NCBI GenBank assembly: GCA_963638355.1
Contig: CAVHRT010000001.1
Coordinates: 4,495 to 68,494 of the forward strand
Direction: 5' to 3'
Source: Flexilinea sp.
GTDB taxonomy: Bacteria > Bacteroidota > Bacteroidia > Bacteroidales > Paludibacteraceae
Length of the DNA: 64,000 bases
In this document: piece by piece, positions 2,993 through 44,884 of the stretch
Numbering within the stretch: the first letter of the stretch is position 1
Layout: each line of letters begins with the position of its first letter
Position numbers and translations under genes: made by a program
The notes under the pieces: generated by a model
The model's input: the letters and a program-made list of their open reading frames with translations, nothing else
The model's database searches: none
What the model was told of the DNA's origin: nothing

Positions 2993-3041
2993 AGTCGTAT
3001 AAATTTGAAATTTCCTCGATGAAATCGCGGTTTTTTGATGT

Positions 3042-5492
3042 TTATCGCATGTCGATTCGCTTCAGTTCCACTTCGCCATTTTCCAACAAGACGATTATCG
3101 AAGTCAGTTCTGCGGCATTCGGGCGAAGGTCGGTCTGTTTTGGCTCGGTTGGCGTGAAGGCGAACCAAGGATATGCTGAGCGTGTTTGCACGGCAGCGCA
3201 TGGCCGAAAATCGTCGATGTTTACGCCAATTTTTGATGTTTCGCTAGTTAATTTTTGGTGATTTTCGAAATAGCGGCCCTCTTTGTCAGTTAAGATGATG
3301 CGAATTTGCGCTTCATCGTCAGTTTTTGCCGATAAAATGGCGATTTTGCAACTATCTAACTGATGTTGGCACAGGTCGATTTGCATGCCAGCGCCACCTT
3401 CGTAGTTTTCTTCGGTTTTCAGACGAATGGCATCGGGCAGATAGTCGATTTTTACGCCATTTCGCCAAATTATTTCGGTTGCGTCAATATCATTTTCGGC
3501 ATTAAACGCGATGTGTTTGCCAACAATTGTGGTGTAGCAGTTTAGTCCCGTATAGTCCCACTGATGCGGCAAACCTGCGCAATCATCGGGAAAAGTGCGC
3601 ACATTGCCATCGGTGTAGAGTGCGATGTTGTACTCAAAAATGCCGTTGGTTGTGGCGTTGGCGGGCAGCGTGGCGCTCCAGTTTATCGCATCTTTTTGGT
3701 CGAATTTCATGCGAATGGGGCGTCCCCATTTCATCTGACCAAACAGAACGATAGAATCGATTTCTTGTGGAGCAATGGCTTGAATATCAATTTGTTGCTC
3801 TTTGCCTGCTTGCCAACTTTTGGCGGCGTGGTTTGTGAGGTAGGGCTTGTCGCAATCGGTGAGCAGTTGGAAACTCTCAAAAAGTCCCAAATTGCCCATT
3901 TCATCGAGCGATTTTGCATCGATGCTGTCATTCAAAATCAGGTAAGTGCCGGGCGAAACCTTGAACGAATTGCGGTCGATTTGGCTTTCGCCGCGGACGT
4001 TCACGAGGCGACATTTTTCGTCGAGGTCGGGCAGCGACAGTTGCATGGTGTGGCGGTCGTTTTTGATGACTGCCACGGTGCGTTGTGGCGAATTGTGCTG
4101 ACGGAATGGATTGTTCACCACCATGGCATCGGGATAGACCTCGAGCCGCCAAGCACCATCTTTTATCTTGTCGATGAAATAGGCTCCGCTGCCGTCGTAT
4201 TTTACTACGGGCGATGAGCCGCACCCTGCAACTTGCGCCAATTCATCGAGGTTTTTGGGCTGTTCGTCGGTCGAGTTTGAATATGCAAAAATGGTGTCGC
4301 AGTTGAGCAGACTCAGATTTTTTGTGGCATCGACTTTGAAATTTTCGAATGCTGAATTTTCGGGATAATCGCCAAAACTTTCACCCCTTTTTATGTGGCG
4401 GAATGCCTCGGCTGCAATGCGGTAACTGATGGCTTTTTGCGGCGTGTAGGCGATGTTCAGAAAGTGTGTGTTATAATCGGTATTGGCGTGCGCAATCACT
4501 AGCGGATCGTAGGCAAACATAGTGGCCCATTGGAAACCCGCCTCGCGAAACGACCGTGCCATGGCTGGATACATGTAACTGTCCAAAATGTCGGCGGCAT
4601 CGAACTCGTAGACCACGCGTGCTTTGTTGGCAAATTTTTTCTTATCGACAAAAGGAATGGTGTAATGCTCTACCAGTGGAAGAAAATTCTCGGTGCGAGC
4701 GTGCCCACTCACCAGTCCGCTTGGATACCACTGAAAAGTTACGCCATCGATTTTTGCTGCCAAATAACTGTCGATCATCGAGGCATTTTCGGCTACGTTG
4801 TAGAAAATTGGCTTTTGGCAACCCGCTTTTCGTAGTGCTTTCACCATTCGGTTGACGTATGCTGTGAGCTGACGGGTGCGGTCGGGTGCGGTTTGGCTTG
4901 GCTCGTTGTTCACCTCTATCGCCACAATGTTGGGGTCGGCGGCGTAGGTGTAGCCCGTGTACGGATTGCGATGTTGCATCAGTTGGGTGAGGTAGCGTTC
5001 GTGTGCAGCCACGGTCGCTTCGTCCCAAGTGGCTTCGTTTTTCGCGATTTTTGCCGAAAATCCTGGCAGTGAGCGGTCGTCGGGTTCGGGCCAGCCATTG
5101 CCCCAAAAGGCTATGCCAGTGATGAGCGTTTTAGCCCCGCGTTCGGCAAATTTTGCAATGGTATAATCGAGTAAATCTAAGTGGTCGTTGGTGAGCAAAT
5201 TGCCCTTTTCATCGGAAATTTCCACGTCCCACACATGCACCCGAAAGGCGTTTGCGCCAAGGCGAGTCATGTGGTACACGTCGCGGTCGATGGCGGCTTT
5301 GAAGTTGGCTCCAACACGCTGATGCATGCGGTAGCCATGAGCAAATGGCATGCAATAGTTGAATCCGAAAAATGCGCACTCTTGTCCGTTGGCATCGCGT
5401 AAAACGCCGTTTTTATCGACCGAATAGTTTTGCGCCACGCTTGCCGAAAGTGCCAGCCCTGCGAGCAGAAATGCCAGAAAAGTTCGTTTCAT
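3042..5492 (-). CDS. secreted clan GH-A (TIM-barrel) glycoside hydrolase, probable beta-galactosidase/exo-galactanase partner of GH53
   Basis: 816 aa with a signal peptide MKRTFLAFLLAGLALSASVAQ. The motifs ANAFRVHVWD and IVAIEVNNEPS (NEP acid/base motif) are followed by a long C-terminal extension. The exact GH family (GH5-like or GH147-like) cannot be decided by eye. Confidence 0.7.
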   Translation of the reverse strand: MKRTFLAFLLAGLALSASVAQNYSVDKNGVLRDANGQECAFFGFNYCMPFAHGYRMHQRVGANFKAAIDRDVYHMTRLGANAFRVHVWDVEISDEKGNLLTNDHLDLLDYTIAKFAERGAKTLITGIAFWGNGWPEPDDRSLPGFSAKIAKNEATWDEATVAAHERYLTQLMQHRNPYTGYTYAADPNIVAIEVNNEPSQTAPDRTRQLTAYVNRMVKALRKAGCQKPIFYNVAENASMIDSYLAAKIDGVTFQWYPSGLVSGHARTENFLPLVEHYTIPFVDKKKFANKARVVYEFDAADILDSYMYPAMARSFREAGFQWATMFAYDPLVIAHANTDYNTHFLNIAYTPQKAISYRIAAEAFRHIKRGESFGDYPENSAFENFKVDATKNLSLLNCDTIFAYSNSTDEQPKNLDELAQVAGCGSSPVVKYDGSGAYFIDKIKDGAWRLEVYPDAMVVNNPFRQHNSPQRTVAVIKNDRHTMQLSLPDLDEKCRLVNVRGESQIDRNSFKVSPGTYLILNDSIDAKSLDEMGNLGLFESFQLLTDCDKPYLTNHAAKSWQAGKEQQIDIQAIAPQEIDSIVLFGQMKWGRPIRMKFDQKDAINWSATLPANATTNGIFEYNIALYTDGNVRTFPDDCAGLPHQWDYTGLNCYTTIVGKHIAFNAENDIDATEIIWRNGVKIDYLPDAIRLKTEENYEGGAGMQIDLCQHQLDSCKIAILSAKTDDEAQIRIILTDKEGRYFENHQKLTSETSKIGVNIDDFRPCAAVQTRSAYPWFAFTPTEPKQTDLRPNAAELTSIIVLLENGEVELKRIDMR

Positions 5493-5678
5493 ATTATTTT
5501 GATTAAACGCTGTGAACCAAGCTCGATTGCAGAAAATCTGTCTTTTGTCCTTTGTTTTTATTCTTTAATCTGCTCGCAAAATTACTCAAAAACTTGCGAT
5601 TTTCAACTTAAAAGCGCATTTTTCGACAAAAATGTTCGTTTTTTCTCCCGTTTTGTGTTCTTTCTTTTGAAAAATGTT

Positions 5679-5817: not shown

Positions 5818-6885
5818 ATGAAAACACTTTCAGGTCTCGATTCGGAGCGGTTCGAAATGCTGCTCGATGGCAAAAAAACGGAACTTACGGTGCTGAAAAA
5901 TGCCCATGGTTGCGAGGTGGCGCTACTCAACTACGGCGCGCGCATTGTGTCGCTGCTGGTGCCCGACAAAAATGGCAAAATGGTCGATGTGGTCACTGGT
6001 CACGAGAGCATTGCCGACTATCTGACAACCGAAGAGACCTATTTTGGCGCCATCTGCGGACGTTATGCAAACCGCATTGCGCGCGGGCATTTTTCGCTCG
6101 ATGGAAAAGATTACAATCTTGCGATAAACAATGGACCAAATTCGTTGCACGGCGGCGTGAAAGGTTTCACTTTTCGTGTTTGGGATGTGGAGAAATTGTC
6201 CGATGAAATGGCGGTTTTTCGACTCACTGCTGCCGATGGCGAGGAGGGTTATCCCGGCAATTTGCAAGTGGAAGTGCGCTACACTTTGACCGACGAAAAC
6301 ATCGTGAAAATCGACTACCGCGCCACTACCGACAAACCAACGGTTTTGAACTTGACAAATCACACCTATTTCAACCTTTCGGGCGAGGGCGAACCCACTG
6401 CCGAAGATCATATCGTTACCATTCATGCCGATGAATTTTTGCCGATGGACGACACTTCCATTCCGTACGGAAAACCTGAAAAAGTGGCGGATTCACCGAT
6501 GGATTTTCGCACACCGCATGTGGTTGGCGAGCGCATCGAGGCGGACTATGAGCAGTTGCACTTCGGTCGTGGCTACGATCACACCTTTATCATCAAAAAA
6601 AATGCCGATGAAATGGCGGTTGCGGTAGAATGCGTATCGCCAAAAACGGGCGTAAAACTGACTGTTGTGAGCGATCAACCGGGCGTGCAGTTCTATTCGG
6701 CAAACTGGATGACGGGCAACATGCTGGGCAAACATGGTCATCGCTACCCAATGCGCGCTGCACTGTGTTTCGAGACGCAACATTTCCCCGATAGCCCGAA
6801 CAAACCAGAATATCCGAGCGTGGTTTTGCGCCCAGGCGAAGTCTTCGAGAGCAAAACTGAATTCCGCTTTTCATTATCAATCTGA
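5818..6885 (+). CDS. galM: aldose 1-epimerase (galactose mutarotase)
   Basis: Motifs YFGAICGRYANRIA, NSLHGG and CFETQHFPDSPN. The start is moved from the track's 5674 to ATG 5818 (MKTLSGLD...) because the upstream 48 codons look like non-coding leader. Confidence 0.88.
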   Translation: MKTLSGLDSERFEMLLDGKKTELTVLKNAHGCEVALLNYGARIVSLLVPDKNGKMVDVVTGHESIADYLTTEETYFGAICGRYANRIARGHFSLDGKDYNLAINNGPNSLHGGVKGFTFRVWDVEKLSDEMAVFRLTAADGEEGYPGNLQVEVRYTLTDENIVKIDYRATTDKPTVLNLTNHTYFNLSGEGEPTAEDHIVTIHADEFLPMDDTSIPYGKPEKVADSPMDFRTPHVVGERIEADYEQLHFGRGYDHTFIIKKNADEMAVAVECVSPKTGVKLTVVSDQPGVQFYSANWMTGNMLGKHGHRYPMRAALCFETQHFPDSPNKPEYPSVVLRPGEVFESKTEFRFSLSI

Positions 6886-6912
6886 AATTTTCAATCTGAA
6901 ATTTTTAATACC

Positions 6913-8073
6913 ATGGAAATCGATTATGTACAAAGCCGTTTTTTGAAACATTTCGACGGCAAAGAGGGCAGCGTTTATGCATCGCCCGGACGAATTAACT
7001 TGATTGGCGAACACACCGATTACAACGGCGGATTTGTCTTCCCCGGTGCCATCGACAAAGGCATCGTGTGTGAAATTCGCCCCAACGGCACCAACACGGT
7101 GATGTGCTATTCCATCGACCTGAAAGACCGCGTGGAGTTCAAAGTGGACGACCCCGAAGGTCCGCGGGCTAGCTGGGCGCGCTATATCTACGGCGTGGTG
7201 CAAGAGATGAGAAAACGCGGTGTCGATGTGAAAGGCTTCAACACGGCATTTGCTGGCGATGTGCCGCTGGGTGCGGGATTGTCGTCGTCGGCTGCGCTCG
7301 AGAGTTGTTTTGCTTTTGCGTTGAACGATCTTTTCGGCGAAAATCGTGTGTCGAAATGGGATCTTGTGCTGGCAGGACAGGCCACCGAGCATAACTATTG
7401 CGGTGTGAATTGTGGCATCATGGATCAATTTGCAAGTGTCTTCGGACAAAAAGGCAAACTGATGCGTCTCGACTGTCGCAGTCGCGAGTTCGAGTATTTC
7501 CCATTCGATCCGAAAGACTACAAACTCGTTTTGGTCGATTCGGTGGTGAAACACGAACTCTCTGGTTCGCCATACAACGATCGTCGCCGTTCGTGCGAGA
7601 ATGTGGTGTCGGCAATTGTGGCAAAATTCCCCGATAAAACCGTGGAAACGCTGCGCGATGCCGACTGGCAAATGCTCGATGCTGTGAAAAACGAAGTGAG
7701 TGCCGAAGATTTGAAACGCGCCACCTTCGTTTTGGGCGAAAAAGACCGCGTGCTGGCCGTTTGCGATGCGTTGAACCGCGGCGATTACGAAACCGTAGGT
7801 CAGAAAATGTACGAAACGCACCATGGCTTGAGTGCCGACTACGAGGTTTCGTGCGAGGAACTCGACTTCTTGAACGATGTGGCAAAAGCCGATGGCGTTA
7901 CGGGCAGTCGCATTATGGGCGGCGGCTTTGGCGGTTGCACCATCAATTTGGTGAAAGACGAAATCTACGACCATTTTGTGGCCGATGTCAAAGAAAAATA
8001 CAAAGCAAAATACGGAAAAGAGCCAAAAATCTACGATGTTGTCATCAGCGATGGCTCACGCAAAATTTGCTAA
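6913..8073 (+). CDS. galK: galactokinase
   Basis: GRINLIGEHTDYNGG is the galactokinase signature, GAGLSSSAAL is the GHMP kinase motif, and GGGFGGC is also present. Confidence 0.95.
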   Translation: MEIDYVQSRFLKHFDGKEGSVYASPGRINLIGEHTDYNGGFVFPGAIDKGIVCEIRPNGTNTVMCYSIDLKDRVEFKVDDPEGPRASWARYIYGVVQEMRKRGVDVKGFNTAFAGDVPLGAGLSSSAALESCFAFALNDLFGENRVSKWDLVLAGQATEHNYCGVNCGIMDQFASVFGQKGKLMRLDCRSREFEYFPFDPKDYKLVLVDSVVKHELSGSPYNDRRRSCENVVSAIVAKFPDKTVETLRDADWQMLDAVKNEVSAEDLKRATFVLGEKDRVLAVCDALNRGDYETVGQKMYETHHGLSADYEVSCEELDFLNDVAKADGVTGSRIMGGGFGGCTINLVKDEIYDHFVADVKEKYKAKYGKEPKIYDVVISDGSRKIC

Positions 8074-8100
8074 AAACCGCCATTTCATCGGAAAAAATCA

Positions 8101-8134
8101 GTGGTTCAGTGTCGCGGCATTGAACCACTTTTTT
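8101..8134 (+). terminator. rho-independent terminator of galK
   Basis: A perfect 8-bp stem gtggttca/tgaaccac with a 12-nt loop is followed by T6. Confidence 0.65.
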
Positions 8135-9862: not shown

Positions 9863-9921
9863 TTTAATTACCCAATTTCCAATTATTCAATTGTCTAATT
9901 GTTGGGTGGATAAATGCGGTT

Positions 9922-9984
9922 CTTGTTTAGATTGAGTCTAAATAAGCAATCGGTGAATTCTTCCGATGAAATGGCGTGTTTTTT
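9922..9984 (-). repeat. intergenic repeat element, copy 1 (hairpin module + CGCCATTTCATCGG box), inverted relative to the copy at 41629
   Basis: 9922-9947 is the exact reverse complement of 41659-41684 (26 nt). The box ccgatgaaatggcg lies 15 nt away, the same spacing as in the other copy. Confidence 0.65.
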
Positions 9985-10074
9985 AATTTTTTGCGAAACG
10001 GATTTGTTACTGATTTAGTAAATTTTAACAAGTCGTTTTAGAGCCATAAATCGCCATATCATAATTCTAAATTC

Positions 10075-16012: not shown

Positions 16013-16034
16013 CAGGTTAATTCGACTGATAATA

Positions 16035-22645: not shown

Positions 22646-25447
22646 CTATCCGTGTGCTTCGAGCCAATTTTGACCGATGCCGATGTCTACTTTCAGCGGA
22701 ATTTGCAGCGGATAGGCGCCTTCCATCTCTTCGCGGACAAGGTTTTTCACGCGTTCAATCTCATCGTTTGGCACATTGAAATTCAACTCGTCGTGCACCT
22801 GTAGAATCATTTGCGTCTTCAGCCCTTCGCGCTCTAGGCGGTCGGCTATGCGCACCATGGCAATTTTTATGATGTCGGCTGCTGAGCCTTGAATCGGTGC
22901 ATTTATGGCATTGCGTTCGGCAAAACCGCGCACTGTGGCGTTGTGCGAATTGATATCTGGCAGAAAGCGTTTGCGGTGAAAAATGGTCTCGACAAAACCC
23001 TGCTTGTGCGCTTGTGCAATGGCACGATCCATGTAGGCTTTCACCTGCGGAAATGTGGCGAAATAGCCATCGATCAACTCTTTGGCTTCAGCACGCGGAA
23101 TGCCCAATCGCTCCGAAAGTCCGAAGGTGGAAATGCCGTAGATGATGCCGAAATTGGCAGTTTTGGCCTTGCGACGCATGTCGGAGGTTACCTCTTCAAT
23201 TGGCACATGGTAGATGTTGGCAGCCGTGGCGGCATGAATGTCGTGGTCGGCACGGAAGGCGGCAAGCATGTTTTCGTCGCCGCTCAAGTGCGCCATTATG
23301 CGCAGTTCTACCTGCGAATAGTCGGCACTCAGGAACACGCAACCTTGCTCGGCGATGAACGCTCGACGAATCTCTTTGCCCTGCTCGTCGCGAACGGGAA
23401 TGTTCTGCAGATTTGGGTTGCTCGAACTCAATCGGCCCGTGGCGGTAACCGTTTGGTTGAACGAGGTGTGTACTTTTCCCGTCTCGGGATTGATGAGTGC
23501 TGGCAGCGCATCAATGTAGGTCGAGAGCAGTTTTTTCAGGCCGCGATAATCGAGAATTTTTCCAACAATCGGGTGTTTGCCGCGCAGTGCCTCGAGCGTC
23601 TCCTCATCGGTAACATATTGTCCTGTCTTGGTTTTCTTGGCTTTCTCTACTATTTTCAGGCGGTCGAAAAGTAACTCGCCAATCTGTTTTGGCGAACTTA
23701 CATTGATGGGACAATCGGCCATTTGCTTTATTTCGCGTTCGATGTTTTGCAGCGTGGCGGTCATGGTTTCCGACGATTGCGCTAGTGCAAAATCGTCGAT
23801 TAAAACGCCATTTTTCTCCATTTTTGCCAACACGCGAACTAGCGGCATTTCGATGTCGTAGAAGAGGTGCTCGAGTTGATTTTCAGCGATTTTATCGACT
23901 AAAATCTGTTTCAATTGCAGTGTGATGTCGGCATCTTCGGCGGCGTATTCGGCAATTTTTGGCACAGGCACGCAGTCCATGGTCAGCTGATTTTTGCCTT
24001 TTGCGCCAATCAGTTCTTCGATGTGAATGGTGCGGTAGTGCAGCATTATTTCGGCCATGTAGTCCATGCCGTGGCGCAGTTCGGGATTTAGCAGATAGTG
24101 CGCCACCATGGTGTCGAACAGTCGTCCCTGAACGGTGATGCCGTAGCGGTCGAGTATCAGCAGGTCGAATTTGACGTTTTGCCCGATTTTATCGATGTTT
24201 TTTGCCTCATAAATGGGACGGAAACGCTCTAAGATTTTCTGCGCTTCGGTGCGATTTTGCGGCAGCGGCACATAGAATGCTTTGTGCGCCTTCACGGCAA
24301 ACGATAAGCCCACCAAATTAGCGCGGAAAATATCGATCGAAGTAGTTTCGGTGTCGAAACAGATTTCGCTCGATGCCGATAAAATGCCGATTAAATCGTC
24401 GATTTCGGCATCGGTTTGAATGGTTTTGTAGTCGTGAGCAATGGTCGCCACGCTGTCGAATGTCTGCACTTCGGTTTGTTGTGCTTCAGAAACTGAATTT
24501 TCGCCCATTTCATCGGCAAAAAGTGAGCCTTGAGCAGTGTCTTTTGTCTTCGATTTTATCGGCGAAATTGGCGCACTCTCGTTGCCGAGTAGTTTGTTCA
24601 GTTGACCACGAAATTCCAATTCGGTGAAAAGTGCGATGAGTGCCTCGCGATCGGGTTCTTTGCGGCGCAATTCTTCTTCGTTGAACTCAATTGGCACATC
24701 GGTTTTGATGGTCGCAAGGAAGCGCGAAAACTCGATTTTATCGCGATTTTCTTCTATTTTTGTCTTCAATGCGCCCTTCAGTTGGTCTGTGTGCTGCAGT
24801 AGATTTTCGATGCTACCGAAGTCGTTGAGCAGTTTCACCGCAGTTTTTTCGCCCACGCCGGGACAGCCCGGAATGTTGTCGGCCGTGTCGCCCATCAGTC
24901 CCAGCAGATCGATGACCTGCTCCACGCGCTGAAGTCCCCATTTTTCAAGTACTTCAGGCATGCCGAGCGTGTCGAAACCATTGCCGCCAAATTTCGGTTT
25001 GTAGATGAACGAATGCTCCGAAACTAACTGCCCGTAATCCTTATCGGAAGTCATCATGTAGGTGTCAAAACCTTGATTTTCGGCCATTTTTGCGAGCGTT
25101 CCAACCACATCATCGGCCTCGAAACCAGCCACTTGCACCACTGGAATGCGATATGCCTCGACCATCTGTTTGATGATTGGCACCGATTGGCGAATGACTT
25201 CAGGCGTCTCTTCGCGCTGCGCCTTGTATTGCGCGTAGGCCTCGTGGCGGAAAGTCGGTCCCGAAGGGTCGAAACAGACCGCAATGTGCGTTGGATTTTC
25301 GCGATTAAGCACATCTTGAAGCGTGTTCAAAAAACCGTAAATAGCCGATGTGTTCAGCCCTTTCGAGTTGGTGCGCGGATTTTTGATGAACGCATAGTAG
25401 GCGCGATAAATCATCGCATAAGCATCGATAAGAAAAAGACGATTCAT
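22646..25447 (-). CDS. polA: DNA polymerase I
   Basis: 933 aa. A 5'-nuclease N-terminus (MNRLFLIDAYAMIYRAYYAF) is followed by 3'-5' exonuclease and polymerase motifs (SADYSQVELRIMAH, RRKAKTANFGIIYG, QVHDEL). Confidence 0.97.
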   Translation of the reverse strand: MNRLFLIDAYAMIYRAYYAFIKNPRTNSKGLNTSAIYGFLNTLQDVLNRENPTHIAVCFDPSGPTFRHEAYAQYKAQREETPEVIRQSVPIIKQMVEAYRIPVVQVAGFEADDVVGTLAKMAENQGFDTYMMTSDKDYGQLVSEHSFIYKPKFGGNGFDTLGMPEVLEKWGLQRVEQVIDLLGLMGDTADNIPGCPGVGEKTAVKLLNDFGSIENLLQHTDQLKGALKTKIEENRDKIEFSRFLATIKTDVPIEFNEEELRRKEPDREALIALFTELEFRGQLNKLLGNESAPISPIKSKTKDTAQGSLFADEMGENSVSEAQQTEVQTFDSVATIAHDYKTIQTDAEIDDLIGILSASSEICFDTETTSIDIFRANLVGLSFAVKAHKAFYVPLPQNRTEAQKILERFRPIYEAKNIDKIGQNVKFDLLILDRYGITVQGRLFDTMVAHYLLNPELRHGMDYMAEIMLHYRTIHIEELIGAKGKNQLTMDCVPVPKIAEYAAEDADITLQLKQILVDKIAENQLEHLFYDIEMPLVRVLAKMEKNGVLIDDFALAQSSETMTATLQNIEREIKQMADCPINVSSPKQIGELLFDRLKIVEKAKKTKTGQYVTDEETLEALRGKHPIVGKILDYRGLKKLLSTYIDALPALINPETGKVHTSFNQTVTATGRLSSSNPNLQNIPVRDEQGKEIRRAFIAEQGCVFLSADYSQVELRIMAHLSGDENMLAAFRADHDIHAATAANIYHVPIEEVTSDMRRKAKTANFGIIYGISTFGLSERLGIPRAEAKELIDGYFATFPQVKAYMDRAIAQAHKQGFVETIFHRKRFLPDINSHNATVRGFAERNAINAPIQGSAADIIKIAMVRIADRLEREGLKTQMILQVHDELNFNVPNDEIERVKNLVREEMEGAYPLQIPLKVDIGIGQNWLEAHG

Positions 25448-28600: not shown

Positions 28601-29263
28601 ATGAAACGCATTCGCATACTCTGTTCGTTGTTGCTTTTGAGCCTTTTCATCGGCATTTTTCAGGAGTCGGTCATGTCGTTTGTCGAAGGTTTTCAGCTGG
28701 GACTGAATGTCGCTGATTTCACCGAAAGCAATGGCATGGACGAGGACACTTTTGTGTCGCTCGATGTGAAACCCACTGCGCCGCAGTTGCAGCCAGAACT
28801 TTTGAACGCCAGCGACAGCACGCTAGTAGTGATGGCACCATCGACGGTGGCGGTGTCGCTCTTCTATCCGCACGGACAAATGCATCGCACCGCATTGCAG
28901 CAGGGCATCGCCATTTTTGGCACGGTGCTGAGTTTTGTGAGTGTCGGTATTTTCATCTACTTGATAGTGCTGTTGGTAAAAATCATTCTCTCGTTCCGCC
29001 GCGGGCAGATGTTCAACGAGCAGAATATTCGCCGAATAAACATCATTGGCATTGGATTTTTGGTGCTTGGCGTGCTGAATACGCTTTGGAGCGCGTTGAA
29101 TGTCTATCTGGCATCGAGTGTGGCAACGCTTCAAGGCTACGAATTTTCGTACGCCAAAGTGGTCGATTGGGACTACATCATCGTGGGATTTGTTATTTTG
29201 CTAATGAACGAGGTGCTACGCCTCGCCACCAACATGAAAAAGGAACAAGATTTGACCATCTAA
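28601..29263 (+). CDS. DUF2975-like membrane protein
   Basis: About 220 aa from ATG 28601 (MKRIRILCSLLLLSLFIG...), with 4 predicted TM helices. It lies immediately upstream of a small HTH regulator, which is the usual DUF2975 pairing. Confidence 0.55.
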   Translation: MKRIRILCSLLLLSLFIGIFQESVMSFVEGFQLGLNVADFTESNGMDEDTFVSLDVKPTAPQLQPELLNASDSTLVVMAPSTVAVSLFYPHGQMHRTALQQGIAIFGTVLSFVSVGIFIYLIVLLVKIILSFRRGQMFNEQNIRRINIIGIGFLVLGVLNTLWSALNVYLASSVATLQGYEFSYAKVVDWDYIIVGFVILLMNEVLRLATNMKKEQDLTI

Positions 29264-34168: not shown

Positions 34169-35506
34169 ATGTACGATTTCGCAATCATTGGTGGCGGTCC
34201 TGCGGGTTACACGGCTGCCGAACGCGCCTCGAAGGCTGGACTCAGCGTGGTGCTTTTCGAAAAAAATGCACTTGGCGGCGTTTGCCTCAACGAGGGTTGC
34301 ATTCCCACAAAAACGTTGCTCTATAGCGCAAAACTCTATCAAAATGCGCTCAATTCGGCAAAATATGGCATCTCGGTTGGAGATGTGTCGTTCGATTTCG
34401 CAAAAATCAGCGTGCGCAAAACCAAAGTGGTGCGTAAACTGAACGCTGGCATACGTGCAAAACTGCAAAATGTTACGGTTGTTTCGGGCGAGGCAACGCT
34501 GAAAAATGCCGATGCAATCGCCAAAATTGAATGTAACGGCGAATTTTACGAAGCCAAAAAAGTTTTGCTCTGTAATGGCTCGTCAGTTTTCATTCCGCCG
34601 ATAAAAGGCACTGAAAATGGTCAGTTTTGGACTAGTCGCGAGGCGTTGCAGACTACCGAAGTGCCCGAAAGCATCGTCATTGTCGGTGGTGGTGTCATCG
34701 GAATGGAGTTTGCCGCGCTCTTTTCGGCATTTGGCAGCAAAGTTTCGGTTGTGGAGATGGCTTCCGAAATTCTGCCTGGAATAGATGGCGAAATTGCCGC
34801 ACTTTTGCGTGTCGAATATGCCAAGCGTGGGGTCGAGTTTTACCTCGGTGCAAAGGTGCTTGAGTTGGACGATGGATGCGTAAAATTTGCCGATGAAATG
34901 GGCGAAAAGTCAATTTCTGCATCGCAAATTTTGCTGTGCGTTGGTCGCCGTCCAAATCTGCAAAATATCGACCTCGATGCGTTGCATTTGCAGTTGGCTG
35001 GTCGTGGTCTGAAAGTGGACGAACACATGCTCACCACCAATCCGATAATTTACGCTGCTGGCGACATCAATGGTGTGTCGATGTTGGCCCACACTGCCGT
35101 GCGCGAGGCCGAAGTGGCGGTGGCTCATCTGCTTGGCAACGACGACCGCATGCACTACGATGCCGTGCCTGGCGTGGTCTATACCAATCCCGAAGTGGCT
35201 GGCGTGGGCGCAACCGAACAGTCGCTGCAGCGCGCTGGCATTGCCTATTGGGCGAAAAAATTGCCGCTGGCATATTCAGGACGGTTTGTGTCTGAAAACG
35301 AAGGCGGCAACGGTCTTTGCAAACTTTTGTTCGACAACGAAAGTCACCTGATTGGCGCGCACATCATCGGAAATCCTGCGTCGGAACTGATTGCCACGGC
35401 TGCGCTCGCCATCGAACAGCACCTCACTGCCGACGAATTTAGCAGCATCATTTTCCCGCATCCATCAGTTGGCGAGATCCTGAAAGAAACCGTTTTTTCA
35501 AATTAA
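34169..35506 (+). CDS. lpdA: dihydrolipoyl dehydrogenase-family FAD/NAD(P) disulfide oxidoreductase
   Basis: IIGGGPAGYTAA, the redox CLNEGCIPTK motif, VGGGVIGMEFA, and the C-terminal dimerisation HPS.GE motif. Confidence 0.85.
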   Translation: MYDFAIIGGGPAGYTAAERASKAGLSVVLFEKNALGGVCLNEGCIPTKTLLYSAKLYQNALNSAKYGISVGDVSFDFAKISVRKTKVVRKLNAGIRAKLQNVTVVSGEATLKNADAIAKIECNGEFYEAKKVLLCNGSSVFIPPIKGTENGQFWTSREALQTTEVPESIVIVGGGVIGMEFAALFSAFGSKVSVVEMASEILPGIDGEIAALLRVEYAKRGVEFYLGAKVLELDDGCVKFADEMGEKSISASQILLCVGRRPNLQNIDLDALHLQLAGRGLKVDEHMLTTNPIIYAAGDINGVSMLAHTAVREAEVAVAHLLGNDDRMHYDAVPGVVYTNPEVAGVGATEQSLQRAGIAYWAKKLPLAYSGRFVSENEGGNGLCKLLFDNESHLIGAHIIGNPASELIATAALAIEQHLTADEFSSIIFPHPSVGEILKETVFSN

Positions 35507-37795: not shown

Positions 37796-38887
37796 TCAAC
37801 TTTTCCACCTAAAATCTCCAACCAATCCGCGCAGCGCAGAATAGACCACATAAACGGGATAGATTGCGCTCAAAGCGAGTGTGTGGCGCAGAAGTTTAGT
37901 TTGGTGTGTGAATGGCAGAAAAATCGCCAAAAATGCCGTATCTATCGCGAATTTTGCGCAAAAAGCAATGCAAAATGGCGTGAGCGTGGCAAAATGCAAA
38001 AAAATGCCGATGAAATCGAGCAAAATCAACGCAGAAAGTCCAAAAACCAAGCACGCCACGACGATGGTCGCTGGGTCGGTGTAACTGGCGGCTTTCGAGG
38101 TCCAGCGCGCCCGCTGATTTACAAAATCGTGCAGCGTGGTTTGCGGCTTGGTCGTTACCACAGTTTTTTCACTCTTCAAAAAGGCGATTTTACCGCCCAT
38201 TTTCTTCACTTCGTGCAGAAGAAAAACATCGTCGCCCGAAGGTTGTTCGGTGTGCAATGCGCTATGGCACTGCAGCCAAACGCTTTTTTTGAAAGCCAAA
38301 TTCGCACCATTGCACATCACTGGCGCGTGTGCGCCACAAGCCCCAGCTGTCGATGCAATGAGCGAAGCAAATTCCAACGCTTGCAGTTGCTGAAACAGCG
38401 TGCTGTCGTCGGTCATGCGCACTGCGCCAAGCAGCAAATCAGGCTCATTTTCGGCGAAATAATCGGAAATAATTTGCAGATGTTCGGCCTGCAGCGTGCA
38501 GTCGGCATCGGTGCAGACGATTATCTCATTTTTGGCGGCTAAAATGCCATCGCTGAGCGCACTTTTTTTGCCATTTCCTGATGCCAAAATGCAGCGCACA
38601 AAAGTGTGATTTTTGGCGAATTCATCGAGAATTTTTGCGGTGTCGTCGGTGGAGTGGTCGTCTACAAAAATTACCTCGAAATCGGTGTGCGTTTGTGCTT
38701 CGATCGACTGCAAAAGTGGCGGCAGATTTTCGGCTTCGTTTTTGCAGCAGACAACGAGCGAAATCAGCGATTTCATCGGCATTTTTTCGGTATAGCGCGG
38801 TGTGCGTTTCCAGCCGATGGCAAACACCAAAATCATGGCAGCGTAGAGCGCCAAAAAACAGTATGTGGCAATGGAAATGACGACCAT
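37796..38887 (-). CDS. family 2 glycosyltransferase (membrane-anchored)
   Basis: VVCCKNEAENLPPLLQSIEAQTHTDFEVIFVDDHSTD, a CTDADC (DxD-like) motif, and a C-terminal TM segment. The start is set at ATG 38887, overlapping the comF stop by 1 nt (TAATG). Confidence 0.8.
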   Translation of the reverse strand: MVVISIATYCFLALYAAMILVFAIGWKRTPRYTEKMPMKSLISLVVCCKNEAENLPPLLQSIEAQTHTDFEVIFVDDHSTDDTAKILDEFAKNHTFVRCILASGNGKKSALSDGILAAKNEIIVCTDADCTLQAEHLQIISDYFAENEPDLLLGAVRMTDDSTLFQQLQALEFASLIASTAGACGAHAPVMCNGANLAFKKSVWLQCHSALHTEQPSGDDVFLLHEVKKMGGKIAFLKSEKTVVTTKPQTTLHDFVNQRARWTSKAASYTDPATIVVACLVFGLSALILLDFIGIFLHFATLTPFCIAFCAKFAIDTAFLAIFLPFTHQTKLLRHTLALSAIYPVYVVYSALRGLVGDFRWKS

Positions 38888-41505: not shown

Positions 41506-41628
41506 AATAGGAATGATTTTTTTTAGTTTATCAAGTTTGTAAAGTTTCGTTCAAAATCCTCGATGAAATGATTTGTTAAGATGTATCAAATCGGTATCAA
41601 TTTTCTCTTTCAAAAAAAAATGAAAATT

Positions 41629-41684
41629 CCGCCATTTCATCGGAAAAAATCGCGGTTTGCTTATTTAGACTCAATCTAAACAAG
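41629..41684 (+). repeat. intergenic repeat element, copy 2 (CCGCCATTTCATCGG box + 15 nt + hairpin module)
   Basis: ccgccatttcatcggaaaaaatc is identical over 23 nt to 8077-8099. gcttatttagactcaatctaaacaag is the exact reverse complement of 9922-9947. Confidence 0.65.
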
Positions 41685-41729
41685 GTTCCGCCGATTATTA
41701 TTCACTATTCATTTTTTATTGTTTATTTT

Positions 41730-43823
41730 TTACGAAATGACTCCCCAGTTTATGGTGGTTTTTGTGAGTTTTGCGAGTTGCAAATTTAAGCATTTATTTT
41801 CGTCTGATGACAAATCTGGATCGGTTTCGAGCAGATTGTGTGCAATGGTGCGCGCGGCTTGCAGTATTTTGCCGTCGCTGGCGAGGTTGGCTATTTTCAG
41901 GTCGAATGGCAATCCGCTCTGAATGGTGCCGTCGATGTCGCCCGGCCCGCGCAGGTTCATGTCAGCTTCGGCTATCACAAAACCATCGGTCGAGTCGACC
42001 ATTATCTGCAGTCGGCGGCGCGTGTCGTTGGCCAGTTCGTAGCGCGACATCAGTATGCAATAGCTCTGGTCGGCGCCGCGCCCCACGCGACCGCGCAGTT
42101 GGTGCAGTTGCGCCAAACCAAAACGCTCGGCATTTTCTATCACCATCACGCTGGCATTTGGCACATTCACGCCCACTTCTATCACCGTGGTGGCGACCAT
42201 TATCTGCGTTTTTCCCGCTACAAAATCGTTCATTTCGCGCTCTTTGTCGGCTGGTTTCATCTTGCCATGAACCATGCTGATGCGGTAGTTCGGGAAGGTG
42301 GCGCGCACTTGCTGAAAACCGTTTTCGAGGTCTTTCAGGTCGAGTTTTTCGGACTCTTGAATGAGCGGATAGACTATGTAGACTTGCCTGCCAGCGTCTA
42401 TTTGTTTTGCCAAAAAGCGATTCAGCGCATCGCGTTTGTTGTCGAACAGATGATATGTGGCAATGGGTTTGCGTCCGGGTGGTAGCTCGTCAATCACCGA
42501 CACATCGAGGTCGCCGTAGATGGTCATGGCCAGTGTGCGCGGAATGGGCGTGGCGGTCATCACCAAGATGTGCGGCGGCTGAATGTTTTTGCTCCAGAGT
42601 TTGGCGCGTTGAGCCACGCCAAAGCGGTGTTGCTCGTCGATCACTACAAGTCCGAGGTTTTTGAAAACCACCGAATCTTCGATGAGTGCGTGCGTTCCGA
42701 TGAGCAGTTGCAGCGTGCCATCTTGCAGCTCTTGGGCAATCACGGCGCGCTCCGATTTTTTTGTAGAACCCGTGAGCAATCGCACATTCAGCCCAATTTT
42801 TTCGACCTGTTTCGAGATGGATTGAAAATGTTGCGTAGCCAAAATTTCGGTCGGCGCCATAATGCAGGCCTGAAAACCGTTGTCGATGGCAATGAGCGCG
42901 GTCATTAGTGCCACCATGGTTTTGCCGCTGCCCACATCGCCTTGCAGCAGACGGTTCATCTGTTTGCCCGAGGCAAGGTCGGCGCGAATCTCTTTGATCA
43001 CGCGCTTTTGCGCTCCAGTGAGTTCAAATGGCAGACATTCGCGGTAGAAACGATTGAAATTTTGCCCGATTTTACCGAGAATATAGCCTTGATATTTCAA
43101 CTCGCGCAGTTTCGTTTGGCGGATGATGCTGAGCTGAATGAAGAAGAGTTCTTCGAATTTCAGTCGGCGTTGTGCTTGCTCGAGCAGTTGTAGATTTTTC
43201 GGAAAATGAATGTTGCGAATGGCCTGATCGCGCGGCATCAGCGCGTACTTTTTGATGAGCGATGGCGGCAATGTTTCGGGAATTTGCAGGTTTGGATCGG
43301 ACAAGGCGGTGTAGATGAGTTTGCGCAGCGCGGCCGAGTTCAGAAACGATGATTTCATCTTCTCGGTGGTGTTGTAGTGCGCTTGCCAGCCTTGCGTTTT
43401 TTGCTGATTTTCGTCGGTGAGCGGGTCAATTTCGGGGTGGGCAATGTTGAACATGCGCCCGTAGCGTTGTGGCTTGCCGAAAATGATGTACCACTGCCCA
43501 ATGCGGTATTTGTCCTCCACATATTTCAGCCCTTTGAACCAGACGAGTTCCATTGCGCCCGTGCCATCGCTGATGGTGGCAACGAGGCGTTGCGAGCGAC
43601 CTTCGCCTTTCTTCTCAAACCGAACGATTTGCGCCTTCAGCTGAATGAGTGGCATGGTTTCGTTTACTTCGGCAATGGAGTAGAAGCGGCTGCGATCGAT
43701 GTGTTTGTAGGGAAAATAGGTGATGAGATCTTCGACGGTGCGAATGCCGAGTTCACCCGTAAGCGTAAGTGCGCGCTTGGGACCAACTCCTGGCAGATAC
43801 ATTATGTCGGTATTTAGCACCAT
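41730..43823 (-). CDS. recG: ATP-dependent DNA helicase RecG
   Basis: 697 aa. Wedge domain plus helicase motifs (LLQGDVGSGKT, VIDEQHRFG, MTATPIPRT, QLHQLRGRVGRG). Confidence 0.95.
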   Translation of the reverse strand: MVLNTDIMYLPGVGPKRALTLTGELGIRTVEDLITYFPYKHIDRSRFYSIAEVNETMPLIQLKAQIVRFEKKGEGRSQRLVATISDGTGAMELVWFKGLKYVEDKYRIGQWYIIFGKPQRYGRMFNIAHPEIDPLTDENQQKTQGWQAHYNTTEKMKSSFLNSAALRKLIYTALSDPNLQIPETLPPSLIKKYALMPRDQAIRNIHFPKNLQLLEQAQRRLKFEELFFIQLSIIRQTKLRELKYQGYILGKIGQNFNRFYRECLPFELTGAQKRVIKEIRADLASGKQMNRLLQGDVGSGKTMVALMTALIAIDNGFQACIMAPTEILATQHFQSISKQVEKIGLNVRLLTGSTKKSERAVIAQELQDGTLQLLIGTHALIEDSVVFKNLGLVVIDEQHRFGVAQRAKLWSKNIQPPHILVMTATPIPRTLAMTIYGDLDVSVIDELPPGRKPIATYHLFDNKRDALNRFLAKQIDAGRQVYIVYPLIQESEKLDLKDLENGFQQVRATFPNYRISMVHGKMKPADKEREMNDFVAGKTQIMVATTVIEVGVNVPNASVMVIENAERFGLAQLHQLRGRVGRGADQSYCILMSRYELANDTRRRLQIMVDSTDGFVIAEADMNLRGPGDIDGTIQSGLPFDLKIANLASDGKILQAARTIAHNLLETDPDLSSDENKCLNLQLAKLTKTTINWGVIS

Positions 43824-43882
43824 CGAATGACGAATTTTTCTCGATGAAAAGGCGCATTTCTCGATTTTTCGGAGGTGAAAAA

Positions 43883-44884
43883 TCAGTTGTTGCGTTCAAG
43901 GGCAAAGTCGAGTAGCGCGGCCAGAGCATTGCGGGCATCGTTTTCGGAGAAAATGGCCAAACAATCGAGCGCTTTTGCCCGAAAATAGTCCATTTTTTTG
44001 TTGGCATAGTCGATGCCGCCATTTTGCAAAACGAATTGCTGAATCCAAGTGCCATTTTCGGCGATTTCATCGGCATTTTTTGCTATATCGACAATGCGTT
44101 TTTTCGCGGTTTCATCGGCATTTTTTATGGCTTGAATTATCGGTAAAGTGAATTTGCCTTCGCGCAGATCGTTGAGCGTGGGTTTGCCGATGTTGGCTTG
44201 CGGTGTGTAGTCGAAAATGTCGTCTTTTATCTGGAAACAGATGCCAAGATTTTCGCCAAAATGTTGCAGCGCATCAACTTTTTCGGGCGATGCTCCTGCC
44301 GACAGTGCGCCAGCCAAGGCACAATGCGCAAAAAGTGAGGCGGTTTTCAGGCGAATTATCTCGTAGTAGACCGATTCGTCGGCCAAAGTGAAGGCGTTTT
44401 GTTGTTGCAAAAGTTCGCCGCGCGTGGTATCTTTGCCCAGTTCCACAAGACAGCGCATCAAATCCATGCTTTCGGTGCGCGACATAAATCCCATCGACTT
44501 GGTGAGCAGATAGTCGCCTACGAGTACGGCCGTTTGGTTGCCAAAGCGCGCATTCACCGATGGGAGTCCGCGGCGTTGATCGGTGCAGTCCACCACATCG
44601 TCGTGGAGCAGGCTGGCGGTGTGCAGCACTTCGAACGAGGCTGCCGCCAAGTGGGTGCGAGCGTTTATCTGTCCTGCCACTTGTGCCGATAGCAGCGTGA
44701 GTGTGGGGCGCAGTTGTTTGCCTTTGCTTTTGGCTACATGGCTCAAGGCCGATTGCAACAGAGCATCGGGCGAGTCGAACGCAGTGTCGAGCAATGCCTC
44801 GAAACGCTGCCATTCGTCGGCTAGTGGTTTGCGTATTTCGTTCAAATCGGCCATTGGTGGCGGTAGAATTTTTTCAGAGTGCAA
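43883..44884 (-). CDS. ispB: polyprenyl (octaprenyl-type) diphosphate synthase
   Basis: LLHDDVVD (first DDxxD) and FQIKDDIFD (second DDxxD). An alternative start at 44854 (MADLNEI...) is possible. Confidence 0.85.
   Translation of the reverse strand: MHSEKILPPPMADLNEIRKPLADEWQRFEALLDTAFDSPDALLQSALSHVAKSKGKQLRPTLTLLSAQVAGQINARTHLAAASFEVLHTASLLHDDVVDCTDQRRGLPSVNARFGNQTAVLVGDYLLTKSMGFMSRTESMDLMRCLVELGKDTTRGELLQQQNAFTLADESVYYEIIRLKTASLFAHCALAGALSAGASPEKVDALQHFGENLGICFQIKDDIFDYTPQANIGKPTLNDLREGKFTLPIIQAIKNADETAKKRIVDIAKNADEIAENGTWIQQFVLQNGGIDYANKKMDYFRAKALDCLAIFSENDARNALAALLDFALERNN

Follow-up and report, generated by a model that had tools for sequence, protein, structure and literature searches.

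Why should one 11-nt word recur on both strands, in genes and spacers alike, of a Paludibacteraceae (Bacteroidales) genome? In a stretch of 64,000 nt (the window) we found CGATGAAATGG eight times, on the + strand at 6201, 6606, 9964 and 34891 and on the - strand at 3896, 8080, 24505 and 41632, as compared to an expectation of 0.07 to 0.3 copies. Dinucleotide shuffles of the window contained 0.07 copies on average and never more than 1, while Markov models predicted 0.24 (order 3) and 0.32 (order 5). The original prediction had placed all eight copies correctly, and the excess that it claimed held against both types of expectation. Once the giant repeat ORF had been masked, this was the sole dispersed family of over-represented words in the window; the remaining families were tandem A/T-rich heptamers found in spacers only.

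The 11-mer was found to form the core of a longer motif, non-palindromic and ~27 nt in length, with the layout seven A/T, N, C, CGATGAAAT, S, G, S, S, N and four A/T. The A/T-run flanks described earlier proved to be specific to the word, since at least six of the seven positions from -9 to -3 were A/T in 59% of CGATGAAA copies but only in 7-10% of cases around control tetramers or random positions. Within these tracts A runs and T runs were interchangeable. We counted ~18 strong copies, all within 3-44 kb of the window and using the strands evenly (Table 1), and a position weight matrix (PWM) identified further degenerate copies, e.g. at 3330+, 25599-, 34510+, 38620- and 39549+. Eight cores were perfect versus 16 that were one-off. 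The looser variants listed previously were approximately where they had been placed, but the final T was missing in four of them: 28641 and 43836 read ...GATGAAAA, 29893 read ...GATGAAAG and 44105 read ...GATGAAAC. The density was ~1 per 8 kb for the exact 11-mer and ~1 per 3-5 kb for near-consensus copies, in a patchy distribution with gaps of 10-20 kb; strong copies were missing at 10-23.8 kb and 44.1-64 kb of the window, at 8-17.9 kb of L163 and over 9.4 kb of new L164 DNA. Spacers held 5 strong copies in 4.0 kb versus 15-20 in the 60 kb that are coding, a density ~5 times that in genes. No stable hairpin was detected in the motif and no inverted-pair terminators were formed, so a hairpin or terminator explanation was rejected. 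Chi and KOPS are polar, strand-skewed words of 5-8 nt that are co-oriented with replication. Our motif shares with them a lineage-specific excess, occurrence inside genes and a spacing of one per several kb, but it is ~27 nt long and its orientations stood at 10:11 while the GC skew, largely positive, kept one sign across ~1-48 kb, though close to zero at 32-40 kb; a strand-polar word was rejected on this ground.

Table 1. Motif copies and conserved intergenic elements in the window.
Position	Strand	Feature	Context and remarks
3008..3034	+	variant CTCGATGAAATCGCGG then T6	spacer, GH5 stop (3042) to GH53 start (2992), antisense to both; PWM 30.8; one core substitution in relative L002
3889..3915	-	exact 11-mer	GH5-like gene, sense, L-D-E-M-G-N-L; site is CGATAAAATGG in L003, diverged in L004
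5197..5223	-	one-off CCGATGAAAAGGGC	GH5-like gene, sense, S-D-E-K-G-N-L; orthologous site in L004 is a perfect 11-mer
6192..6218	+	exact 11-mer	galM, S-D-E-M-A-V-F; TCCGATGAAATGGCGGTTTTT is the reverse complement of 8072-8092
6597..6623	+	exact 11-mer	galM, K-N-A-D-E-M-A-V; 8 A directly before
8073..8099	-	exact 11-mer	immediately 3' of galK stop codon and antisense to that gene, whose true terminator hairpin (8100-8129) lies further downstream; 37/39 nt kept in L004 (genome 76% identical)
9925..10040	+	conserved intergenic element, copy 1, ~115 nt	5' hairpin CTTGTTTAGATTGAGTCTAAATAAG; word unpaired at centre
9955..9981	+	exact 11-mer	nspC/GSCFA convergent spacer, mid ~115-nt conserved element
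24498..24524	-	exact 11-mer	polA inter-domain linker, F-A-D-E-M-G-E-N
28635..28661	-	one-off AAAAATGCCGATGAAAAGGC	antisense in signal-peptide coding part of DUF2975 gene, there L-F-I-G-I-F
34501..34527	+	degenerate GAAAAATGCCGATGCAATCGCC	lpdA; found by PWM; intact CGATGAAATCG in the 94% identical relative L159
34882..34908	+	exact 11-mer	lpdA, F-A-D-E-M-G-E-K
37999..38025	+	AAAAAATGCCGATGAAATCG	antisense in GT2 glycosyltransferase gene; perfect 20-nt inverted repeat with 38761-38787
38761..38787	-	AAAAAATGCCGATGAAATCGC	close to GT2 gene 5' end, other frame (K-M-P-M-K-S); may overlap the true GT2 start codon
41545..41690	-	conserved intergenic element, copy 2	
41552..41578	+	weak CCTCGATGAAATGAT	spacer downstream of recG; PWM 18.9; inverted to 41625-41651, ~66 nt apart
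41625..41651	-	exact 11-mer	spacer downstream of recG, within second ~115-nt element
43833..43859	+	one-off TTCTCGATGAAAAGGCGC	spacer, polyprenyl synthase stop to recG start
44055..44081	-	AAAAAATGCCGATGAAATCGCCGAAAA	polyprenyl synthase gene, K-N-A-D-E-I-A
44100..44126	-	AAAAAATGCCGATGAAACCGCGAAAAA	polyprenyl synthase gene, K-N-A-D-E-T-A; 45 nt from the 44055..44081 copy

Within sub-families the copies had 20-34 nt of sequence in common. The AAAAAATGCCGATGAAATCG sub-family had three copies and a fourth, at 44110, with one base different; GATTTTTTCCGATGAAATGGCGG was common to two copies, the polA and lpdA copies were identical at 32 of 34 nt, and the two spacer elements had 55 nt in common. An identity of 23 nt reported earlier, between 8077-8099 and 41629-41651, was exact. 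So was the 21-nt inverted identity with 6199-6219, though its partner lies at 8072-8092 and not at 8074-8094.

The signal lies at the DNA level and is conserved as DNA, not as protein. As predicted, all five exact copies in coding sequence were sense and in a single frame, C-GAT-GAA-ATG-G, in differing proteins, which Pfam identified as a GH5-like hydrolase, galM (twice), polA and lpdA. Synonymous-codon shuffles gave 0.6 coding copies versus the five observed. For PWM matches in coding sequence we observed 20 with a score of at least 20 (4.0 +/- 1.4 in the shuffles) and 11 with a score of at least 28 (0.5 in the shuffles), the top matches being partly circular as the matrix was derived from window copies. 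Across the family the word was read as D-E-M, as M-K or, in antisense, as I-S-S or F-I-G. The D-E-M-[AG] peptide was not conserved in the galM orthologues, a result that leaves the DNA-level idea standing: both DEMAV peptides were missing there, and both lie in variable loops where non-conserved residues were replaced. Comparison with the orthologues further indicated that the galM copies arose by substitution, without indels. In motif spans compared with 90-94% identical relatives, only 1 of 60 third codon positions differed (~9 expected) and 3 of 75 spacer positions (~12 expected), a contrast that is inflated up to ~two-fold because the sites were picked for matching the consensus in the window. 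The three copies in uvrC lie on conserved peptides, and protein constraint therefore contributes there.

To determine if the excess was local to the window, an outcome that would have counted against the original prediction, we searched a further 23.4 kb from close relatives, which brought the DNA sampled to roughly 90 kb, and found three exact copies in the added sequence versus ~0.1 expected; the excess thus continues past the window. The exact 11-mer occurred at 0.126 per kb in the close clade, 0.105 in clade B, 0.024 in clade C and 0 in clade D, the outgroup loci being orthologous to motif-rich regions. Other loci yielded one exact copy in 354 kb, and these loci, mostly from Bacteroidota and some similar in GC content, had no PWM matches of 20 or above. 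The motif is confined to one uncultured Paludibacteraceae lineage and fades with phylogenetic distance.

Two explanations fail. One is that composition, codon usage or protein selection for D-E-M-[AG] or K-N-A-D-E yields the excess as a by-product. A/T runs are indeed abundant in the genome and alternate with words of the GCCG and CGAT types, the weaker PWM matches in polA are kept in all relatives and resemble ordinary coding sequence, and the uvrC peptides are conserved. However, order-5 Markov expectation and synonymous shuffles both fell far short of the observed counts (0.3 vs 8 and 0.6 vs 5), the peptides were not conserved in galM orthologues, copies also occurred in spacers, antisense to genes and in another reading frame, and the 354 kb of other loci lacked high-scoring matches. 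This explanation is already largely refuted and we regard it as very improbable. HIP1 (GCGATCGC), the highly iterated palindrome of cyanobacteria, is an 8-bp word of debated function; like our motif it is lineage-specific, in excess in coding and non-coding DNA and kept at the DNA level, but it is a short palindrome and much denser, whereas the word described here is at least 11 nt long, asymmetric and flanked by A/T tracts. The other explanation takes the copies for what is left of a small mobile or palindromic repeat (REP, MITE or RPE-like) inserted in genes and spacers. REP/BIME, MITE and Rickettsia palindromic elements have palindromic sequences and reach their sites by inserting, and the Rickettsia elements can sit in frame within genes. 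Our copies are likewise short dispersed repeats in both orientations, and in L004 a 1.07-kb cassette lies between motif-containing direct repeats of 39 nt. On the other hand, the direct repeats flanking a second cassette (L164) lack the motif, which makes the association in L004 a probable coincidence. Moreover, the copies had no stable hairpin, no terminal repeats and no target duplications, and the coding copies were collinear with orthologues without insertion, which refutes a mobile-repeat origin for them and leaves the idea as a whole exceedingly improbable.

Our best reading, offered tentatively and by analogy, is molecular drive through sequence-biased DNA uptake and recombination, the process best known for generating such a pattern, as with the uptake sequences grouped as 'DUES' (DUS in Neisseriaceae, USS in Pasteurellaceae). 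In this reading the word is the core of a lineage-specific ~27-bp signature acting on double-stranded DNA, whatever its orientation or coding content. New copies arise by point substitution at tolerant places, namely variable protein loops, a few compatible peptides and above all spacers, and are retained once formed. These Paludibacteraceae would have a DNA receptor, at the surface or in the periplasm, that prefers motif-bearing fragments, with the flanking A/T tracts assisting DNA bending, and through this preference motif-bearing alleles would replace motif-less ones. The likeness to uptake sequences that had been proposed was borne out in several respects (PMC3458573; bioRxiv 10.1101/2025.10.24.684340): a long non-palindromic word over-represented in one lineage only, strand symmetry, presence in genes and spacers with enrichment in the latter, frame bias at tolerant positions in genes, an extended consensus with A/T tracts, and a dialect-like variation in density among related clades. 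In other respects it did not hold, since the motif belongs to another phylum, is patchy and several-fold less dense, has A/T tracts on both sides of the core, forms no inverted-pair terminators, and falls into sub-families with 20-34 nt in common. To our knowledge no uptake sequences have been described in Bacteroidota. The only competence gene seen here belonged to the ComF family, with a score below the NCBIfam cut-off; natural competence in the phylum has been reported for P. gingivalis (PMC3268665) and R. anatipestifer (PMC8459023). The H. influenzae USS, of which roughly 2000 sites were analysed in one small genome, has helically phased T tracts, and the direction of replication or transcription is without effect (PMC3458573). 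About half of known uptake sequences sit in terminators, and they are biased to genome-maintenance genes (bioRxiv 10.1101/2025.10.24.684340). The motif resembles them in the latter respect, with copies in polA and uvrC (three) and flanking recG.

An uptake-like drive or the site of a lineage-specific DNA-binding protein, either of them putative, fits the data best. In the latter case the motif would be the site of an abundant double-stranded-DNA-binding protein (nucleoid-organising, chromosome-maintenance or self-marking, e.g.) and would be selected for binding, not uptake. A DNA-level, orientation-independent signal with constrained silent sites agrees with such a site, as do the long asymmetric motif with A/T tracts favouring bending, the enrichment in spacers and the intergenic location of those copies that are oldest and conserved best, at the 3' end of galK and in the ~115-nt element; the patchy regional spread resembles that of domain-specific binding sites more than that of uptake sequences. 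Nevertheless, the exact 11-mer would carry at least 22 bits where ~14 would be needed at one per 8 kb, the ratio of eight perfect to 16 one-off cores has more perfect copies than a degenerate binding site would give, the majority of copies are within genes, and no candidate protein is known. We consider a protein site possible but on the whole doubtful, and infer that a bias in uptake or recombination, rather than chromosomal protein binding, would be the selective agent. A pure uptake drive does not predict the 20-34 nt sub-families or the parallel difference between polA and lpdA (TTTCTG in both genes of the window, TTTCGG in both in L159), which suggest copying between sites. Ectopic gene conversion or templated repair could spread patches of 20-35 nt between core-sharing sites, in concerted evolution of a word that is itself functionless, and the copied patches might originate from the conserved intergenic element. 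The long identities within sub-families (AAAAAATGCCGATGAAATCG in three copies, GATTTTTTCCGATGAAATGGCGG in two, 55 nt between the spacer elements, 32/34 nt between polA and lpdA) favor this, and so does the convergence of polA and lpdA copies that derive from differing ancestral sequences (L160, L162). However, the parallel difference is a single synonymous site, expected by chance at ~0.05 over the shared segment (a rough estimate from 12.3% third-position divergence); it is the one weak hint of the gene-conversion hotspot raised as an option earlier. Copying alone explains neither the silent-site constraint in single-copy contexts nor the interchangeable A-run and T-run architecture, and no mechanism is known for such short patches between unlinked genes; we judge it unlikely. 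Finally, the ~115-nt element may be a small RNA whose unpaired centre pairs with mRNA copies, or the word may be an RNA-protein binding site. Both paralogous elements were almost invariant among genomes that are 75-93% identical, with compensatory changes in the 5' hairpin and the word left unpaired, and, of the six copies in antisense orientation, four are no more than ~60 nt from a start codon as read from coordinates (3017, 28645, 41561 and 43842). Against this, no Rfam family matched the element and neither a promoter nor a terminator was identified for it; we find an RNA-level role highly unlikely. About 11 of 17 copies share the polarity of the putative RNA, which makes pairing impossible for them, and copies of both polarities were constrained.

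The over-representation of the 11-mer CGATGAAATGG (the word) in the window is real and robust. We found eight exact copies, four per strand, at the sites named in the original prediction. One hundred dinucleotide-preserving shuffles gave a mean of 0.07 copies and a maximum of 1, while Markov models fitted to the window predicted 0.24 (order 3) and 0.32 (order 5) copies. Variants differing at one position numbered 16 against 4.1 expected, with the perfect word still the single most frequent form. When the giant repeat ORF was masked, the CGATGAAATGG family was the sole dispersed over-represented word family in the window, and the remaining top words were A/T-rich heptamer tandem repeats present in spacers only. 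Five copies are coding and, as predicted, every one is read on the sense strand in a single frame, C/GAT/GAA/ATG/G; galM has two of them, and polA, lpdA and the gene for a GH5-like hydrolase, which are unrelated to it and to each other, have one each. The 23-nt identity reported between 8077-8099 and 41629-41651 was exact; the 21-nt inverted identity reported for 6199-6219 was also exact, but its partner is located two bases away from the position first given, at 8072-8092.

We aligned 17 copies of CGATGAAA to define the motif of which the word is the core. Positions -9 to -3 were A or T almost without exception, AAAAAAT, ATTTTTT and AAATTT being examples of the runs. Next came G, T or C, a C, CGATGAAA itself without variation, T in 13 of 17 copies, and S, G, S and S; after a variable base, a second A/T run occupied +14 to +17 at the 3' end. 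At least six of the seven upstream bases were A or T in 59% of the CGATGAAA copies relative to 7-10% for control tetramers and random positions, and this flank is specific to the word. A 27-position weight matrix (PWM) identified 42 window sites scoring at least 12, as compared to 2.6 in order-3 Markov simulations, and ~30 scoring at least 18 against 0.1 expected, the top hits being partly circular because window copies went into the matrix. The additional members to which this does not apply are listed in the table. Weak hits (18-24) in polA were conserved in all relatives, including clades lacking the word, and were treated as ordinary coding sequence and not as members of the family.

A composition or codon effect was excluded by the Markov expectations together with synonymous shuffles and coding PWM counts. 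When codons were shuffled synonymously within genes 300 times with the proteins fixed, 0.6 sense-strand 11-mers were expected and never more than 3 occurred, whereas five are present; coding PWM hits of at least 20 numbered 20 against 4.0 +/- 1.4, and those of at least 28 numbered 11 against 0.5 expected. The sequence AAAAAATGCCGATGAAA reads K-N-A-D-E in galM and in a polyprenyl synthase gene and K-M-P-M-K at the 5' end of a GT2 gene, and it also occurs in antisense orientation, in GT2 as well as in a region encoding a signal peptide. One motif copy in uvrC of relatives is likewise antisense, reading A-I-S-S-G-K-F, and family-wide the copies lie in sense, in antisense, in two reading frames and in spacers. 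With the exception of uvrC, the coding copies are a DNA-level feature at protein-tolerant positions and not a conserved peptide. The uvrC copies sit on peptides conserved in four of the four lineages compared (IDEI, LLDEMA and AISSGKF), so protein constraint contributes there.

The original prediction had named a peptide kept with different codons as the sign of protein-level selection. This was not so in galM: both copies lie in variable loops, and peptide and word are each lineage-specific. The SDEMAV and NADEMAV segments differ in every more distant orthologue (HDEKTAV and KPLGEFG in L004, a syntenic locus of a relative; IDSQTVE and KKENEFS in Parabacteroides), and the alignment across orthologues is collinear, with no indel. 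Turnover was evident: the GH5 gene of L004 has a perfect 11-mer where the window has a one-off form at 5207, both galM copies are missing in L004, a one-off copy lies at its galK 3' end, and the spacer copy at 9964 is common to both. The polA and lpdA sites have CGATGAAA with different tails in more distant relatives, the window clade being nearer the consensus. Copies thus originate through substitution where the sequence tolerates it.

Loci of relatives were obtained by a galM-based scan of reference genomes, by which the window belongs to uncultured Paludibacteraceae (Bacteroidales), and then with polA, M13-peptidase and gidA homologues; an exact look-up of the window's polA matched only a 2.9-kb Logan contig. 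L002, L003 and L004 are syntenic with the window (93%, 90% and 76% nucleotide identity), L159, L163 and L164 are 94%, 95% and ~91% identical to it, and L160, L161, L162, L165, L166, L167 and L168 are more distant. The excess reaches beyond the window but is patchy. Outside the window, 23.4 kb of close-clade DNA held three exact copies against ~0.1 expected (Poisson P ~3e-4, order-5 expectation). All three, with five PWM hits of at least 24, fall in the ~14 kb of L163 past the left end of the window, where copies are confined to uvrC, the apt-uvrC spacer and the spacer upstream of gidA. There was no such copy in the 10 kb of L163 with hisG, the M13 peptidase gene, infB, nusA and rimP or in a further 9.4 kb of new DNA reached via L164, and no strong copy in the window at 10-23.8 kb or past 44.1 kb, where the giant ORF makes up most of the sequence. 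The 4.0 kb of spacer contained five strong copies and the 60 kb of coding DNA 15-20. DNA-repair genes are clustered in or near the window, uvrC lying ~10 kb to its left in relatives; uvrC has three motif copies, polA one exact copy, recG three flanking copies and uvrB none, the polA, uvrC and recG numbers being too small for a statistical test of genome-maintenance bias.

The signal is limited to one lineage and follows a gradient within it. The close clade (window plus the new DNA of L163 and L164) had 11 exact copies and 18 PWM hits of at least 28 in 87.4 kb of non-redundant DNA, or 0.126 exact 11-mers per kb. The density was 0.105 per kb in clade B (L004 and L165; 38 kb, four copies against 0.08 expected), 0.10 per kb in L168 (19 kb, gidA 88% identical), 0.024 per kb in clade C (L162 and L166; 42 kb) and zero in both clade D (L160 and L161; 45 kb) and L167 (22 kb, gidA 80% identical). 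These outgroup densities are if anything over-estimates, because in the close clade the regions orthologous to these loci are rich in the motif. Other loci, mostly from Bacteroidota (L005-L023; 354 kb), contained one exact copy in total and no PWM hit of at least 20. Among the matches listed in a metagenome scan for the 16-mer TCCGATGAAATGGCGG, we found single chance matches in unrelated organisms (GC 36-71%), with neither A/T flanks, extra copies nor new DNA of the lineage, and scans of viral contigs gave chance-level single matches only.

We compared the 15-nt spans of 11 window sites with L002, L003 and L159 (90-94% identical). Third codon positions within the spans differed at 1 of 60 positions against ~9 expected from background, and spacer copies at 3 of 75 against ~12. 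The sites were picked as consensus matches in the window, which may hide changes on the window branch and inflate the contrast up to about two-fold; the deficit persists despite this selection (4 differences against ~11). Relative to the 76% identical genomes, the spans were about as divergent as background overall and about half as divergent at third positions. On this comparison the copies are constrained as DNA.

Several known kinds of element were considered. REP, MITE and other palindromic elements are imperfect palindromes with a stable stem-loop that spread by insertion, and the word is not a stem-loop palindrome arriving in this way. Five of six folded motif sequences were no better than shuffles, and the polA/lpdA-type variant was modestly stable (z = -2.1); no terminator predicted in 1-20 kb coincided with a motif copy, and one inverted motif pair was found (41561/41635, ~66 nt apart). 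Folding and the terminator scan rule out a hairpin, terminator or REP reading, and an inserted mobile element is ruled out by the collinearity of the coding copies with orthologues. Chi and other polar words are 5-8 nt long and co-oriented with replication, whereas the conserved span here is ~27 nt and the orientation is 10 '+' to 11 '-', which rules out a Chi-like word; GC skew is positive or near zero over 1-48 kb, and the balanced orientation under this skew argues against a replication-polar word. HIP1-like iterated elements are short perfect palindromes, while CGATGAAATGG is not palindromic and has partial symmetry only in CGAT-N3-ATCG variants. Rfam covariance models matched nothing in the window at gathering thresholds, with only a chance-level hit near 9850-9899. 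A short ORF from the word (ATGAAATGGCG, read as M-K-W-R) was rejected, its length and sequence not being conserved between copies.

A recombination (att) site was suggested by L004, in which a 1.07-kb cassette with three small minus-strand ORFs (DUF3791/DUF3990-like by eye) lies between galK and cvpA with 39-nt direct repeats AAAATTTGCTAAAAACCGCCATTTAATCGGGAAAAATTA, made up of the last galK codons and the motif, on both sides. This candidate was weakened by L164, where a toxin-antitoxin-like cassette (a small ORF and a PIN-domain gene) between uvrC and rimP, inserted relative to L163, is flanked by ~16-nt direct repeats TTACGCGCATTTTCAC from the uvrC 3' end. Because these repeats are without the motif, the overlap in L004 is probably a positional coincidence at a gene 3' end. 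The small ORF of the L164 insertion itself holds an exact 11-mer.

Uptake sequences are, to our knowledge, the only well-understood molecular drive writing a word genome-wide in bacteria, and we know of their description to date in Neisseriaceae (DUS) and Pasteurellaceae (USS) only. They occur in hundreds to thousands of copies genome-wide, competent cells prefer DNA bearing them, and their systems include ComEC, ComEA, DprA and an outer-membrane uptake apparatus or receptor. Like DUS and USS, the word is without strand, replication or transcription bias, lies in both genes and spacers, and has coding copies set by DNA at protein-tolerant sites (uvrC excepted). Unlike them, it forms no terminator pairs from inverted copies, and its density in the 87.4 kb sampled is several-fold lower and patchy. 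In the known systems, helically phased T tracts adjoin a short core, most copies are inside genes, and the direction of replication or transcription is without effect (PMC3458573); the copies are also described as biased in frame and enriched in genes for genome maintenance, UvrABC among them, and about half of the known sequences are in terminators (bioRxiv 10.1101/2025.10.24.684340). Natural competence has been reported in the Bacteroidota P. gingivalis (PMC3268665) and R. anatipestifer (PMC8459023). In the literature we found neither an uptake sequence described in Bacteroidota nor an earlier account of the word, which matched only unrelated primers and sequences. The only competence-type protein found in the window is of the ComF family (99 bits against a cut-off of 233), which is weak support for competence. 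The feature resembles a known kind of system, one not known from this phylum.

Such a pattern would need an agent that recognises double-stranded DNA over ~27 bp, whichever way round it lies, and favours the retention or spread of matches; uptake bias in natural transformation is the known process that leaves a word like this in genes and spacers alike. That the word is the product of such an uptake-like bias is a possibility we entertain tentatively, at less than an even chance, and it is somewhat more doubtful that a sequence-specific signal of ~27 bp, with the core CCGATGAAATGG between A/T tracts, serves DNA uptake in these Paludibacteraceae. Against an origin by uptake bias stand the low density, the patchiness and the absence of terminator pairs, as well as the 20-34 nt that motif sub-families have in common. 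The main rival, a site for an abundant lineage-specific DNA-binding protein, would account for the constraint and the regional distribution and leaves unexplained the excess information content and the dominance of perfect copies inside genes; we consider it rather unlikely. The polA and lpdA copies, which have 32 of 34 nt around the word in common, converged from different ancestors, with TTTCTG in both genes of the window and TTTCGG in both of the 94% identical L159. Such a synonymous difference in parallel is a hint of concerted evolution, or of copying between sites. Short-patch conversion as the source of the word seems improbable, and an RNA-level role tied to a conserved ~115-nt spacer element more improbable still by a wide step; both are compatible with either an uptake bias or a binding protein. 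If uptake bias were the cause, the motif would be the first uptake sequence found beyond Proteobacteria, and it would imply that natural transformation is biased towards self DNA in a Bacteroidales lineage represented solely by metagenome assemblies. It would provide a handle for finding the receptor, a marker separating core from recently acquired DNA in metagenome-assembled genomes, and a possible way of making these organisms more accessible to genetics. Should a chromosomal protein bind the word instead, the word would define a new protein-DNA system that is easy to test. In both cases the motif stands out in uncultured genomes as a clear feature open to testing.

The ~115-nt spacer element is nearly invariant across genomes only 75-93% identical overall. 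On its 5' side is the hairpin CTTGTTTAGATTGAGTCTAAATAAG, whose base shows compensatory changes; the word is unpaired mid-element, and a 3' domain is possible. No Rfam family matched the element, which is a candidate for a small RNA or a site of protein binding.

Coordinates of features in the window and in loci of related genomes
Feature	Locus	Coordinates	Strand
Additional PWM member	window	3330	+
Additional PWM member	window	25599	-
Additional PWM member	window	34510	+
Additional PWM member	window	38620	-
Additional PWM member	window	39549	+
Word and flanks in polA	window	24498-24531	-
Word and flanks in lpdA	window	34882-34915	+
Word and flanks in polA and lpdA	L159	480-520, 10925-10965	
~115-nt spacer element	window	9925-10040	+
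~115-nt spacer element	window	41545-41690	-
~115-nt spacer element	L002	8144-8276	
~115-nt spacer element	L003	14096-14228	
~115-nt spacer element	L004	15203-15335	
Tandem-unit spacers (examples)	window	10929-10953, 15101-15127, 15179-15222, 19004-19036, 19076-19123, 19825-19857, 25482-25513, 34002-34031, 35501-35533	
polA	window	22646-25447	
recG	window	41730-43823	
uvrB	window	44903-47059	
uvrC	L163	17074-18915	
ComF-family protein	window	38887-39576	
nspC	window	8705-9862	+
Giant ORF	window	47170-64000, past window end	+
Antisense ORFs	window	6877-7974, 16017-17474, 30389-31471	-
Antisense ORF	window	45713-46975	+
Cassette between galK and cvpA	L004	12240-13387	
Cassette between uvrC and rimP	L164	14392-15335	
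23S_rRNA_IVP/bAvd-domain gene	L161	18322-18681	

Many window spacers contain three to six tandem copies of a 7-9 nt A/T-rich unit (AGAATTA, AAATTTC, ATTTCAG, AAACTTTAT or TAATTGA), and the same units recur between spacers. The giant ORF has >5600 codons and encodes Ig-like (CHU_C-associated, PF19081) repeats that each contain TGCGAAGGC (C-E-G); it has no motif copies. The gene that Pfam hits alone suggested to be a lysA-like decarboxylase is the carboxynorspermidine decarboxylase gene nspC (486 bits to TIGR01047, whose cut-off is 409). Antisense ORFs of 360-485 codons lie opposite real genes and probably result from codon usage that avoids antisense stops, a trap for gene callers. A small gene between two methylmalonyl-CoA mutase genes, seen in L161 only, has 23S_rRNA_IVP/bAvd domains as in accessory proteins of diversity-generating retroelements.
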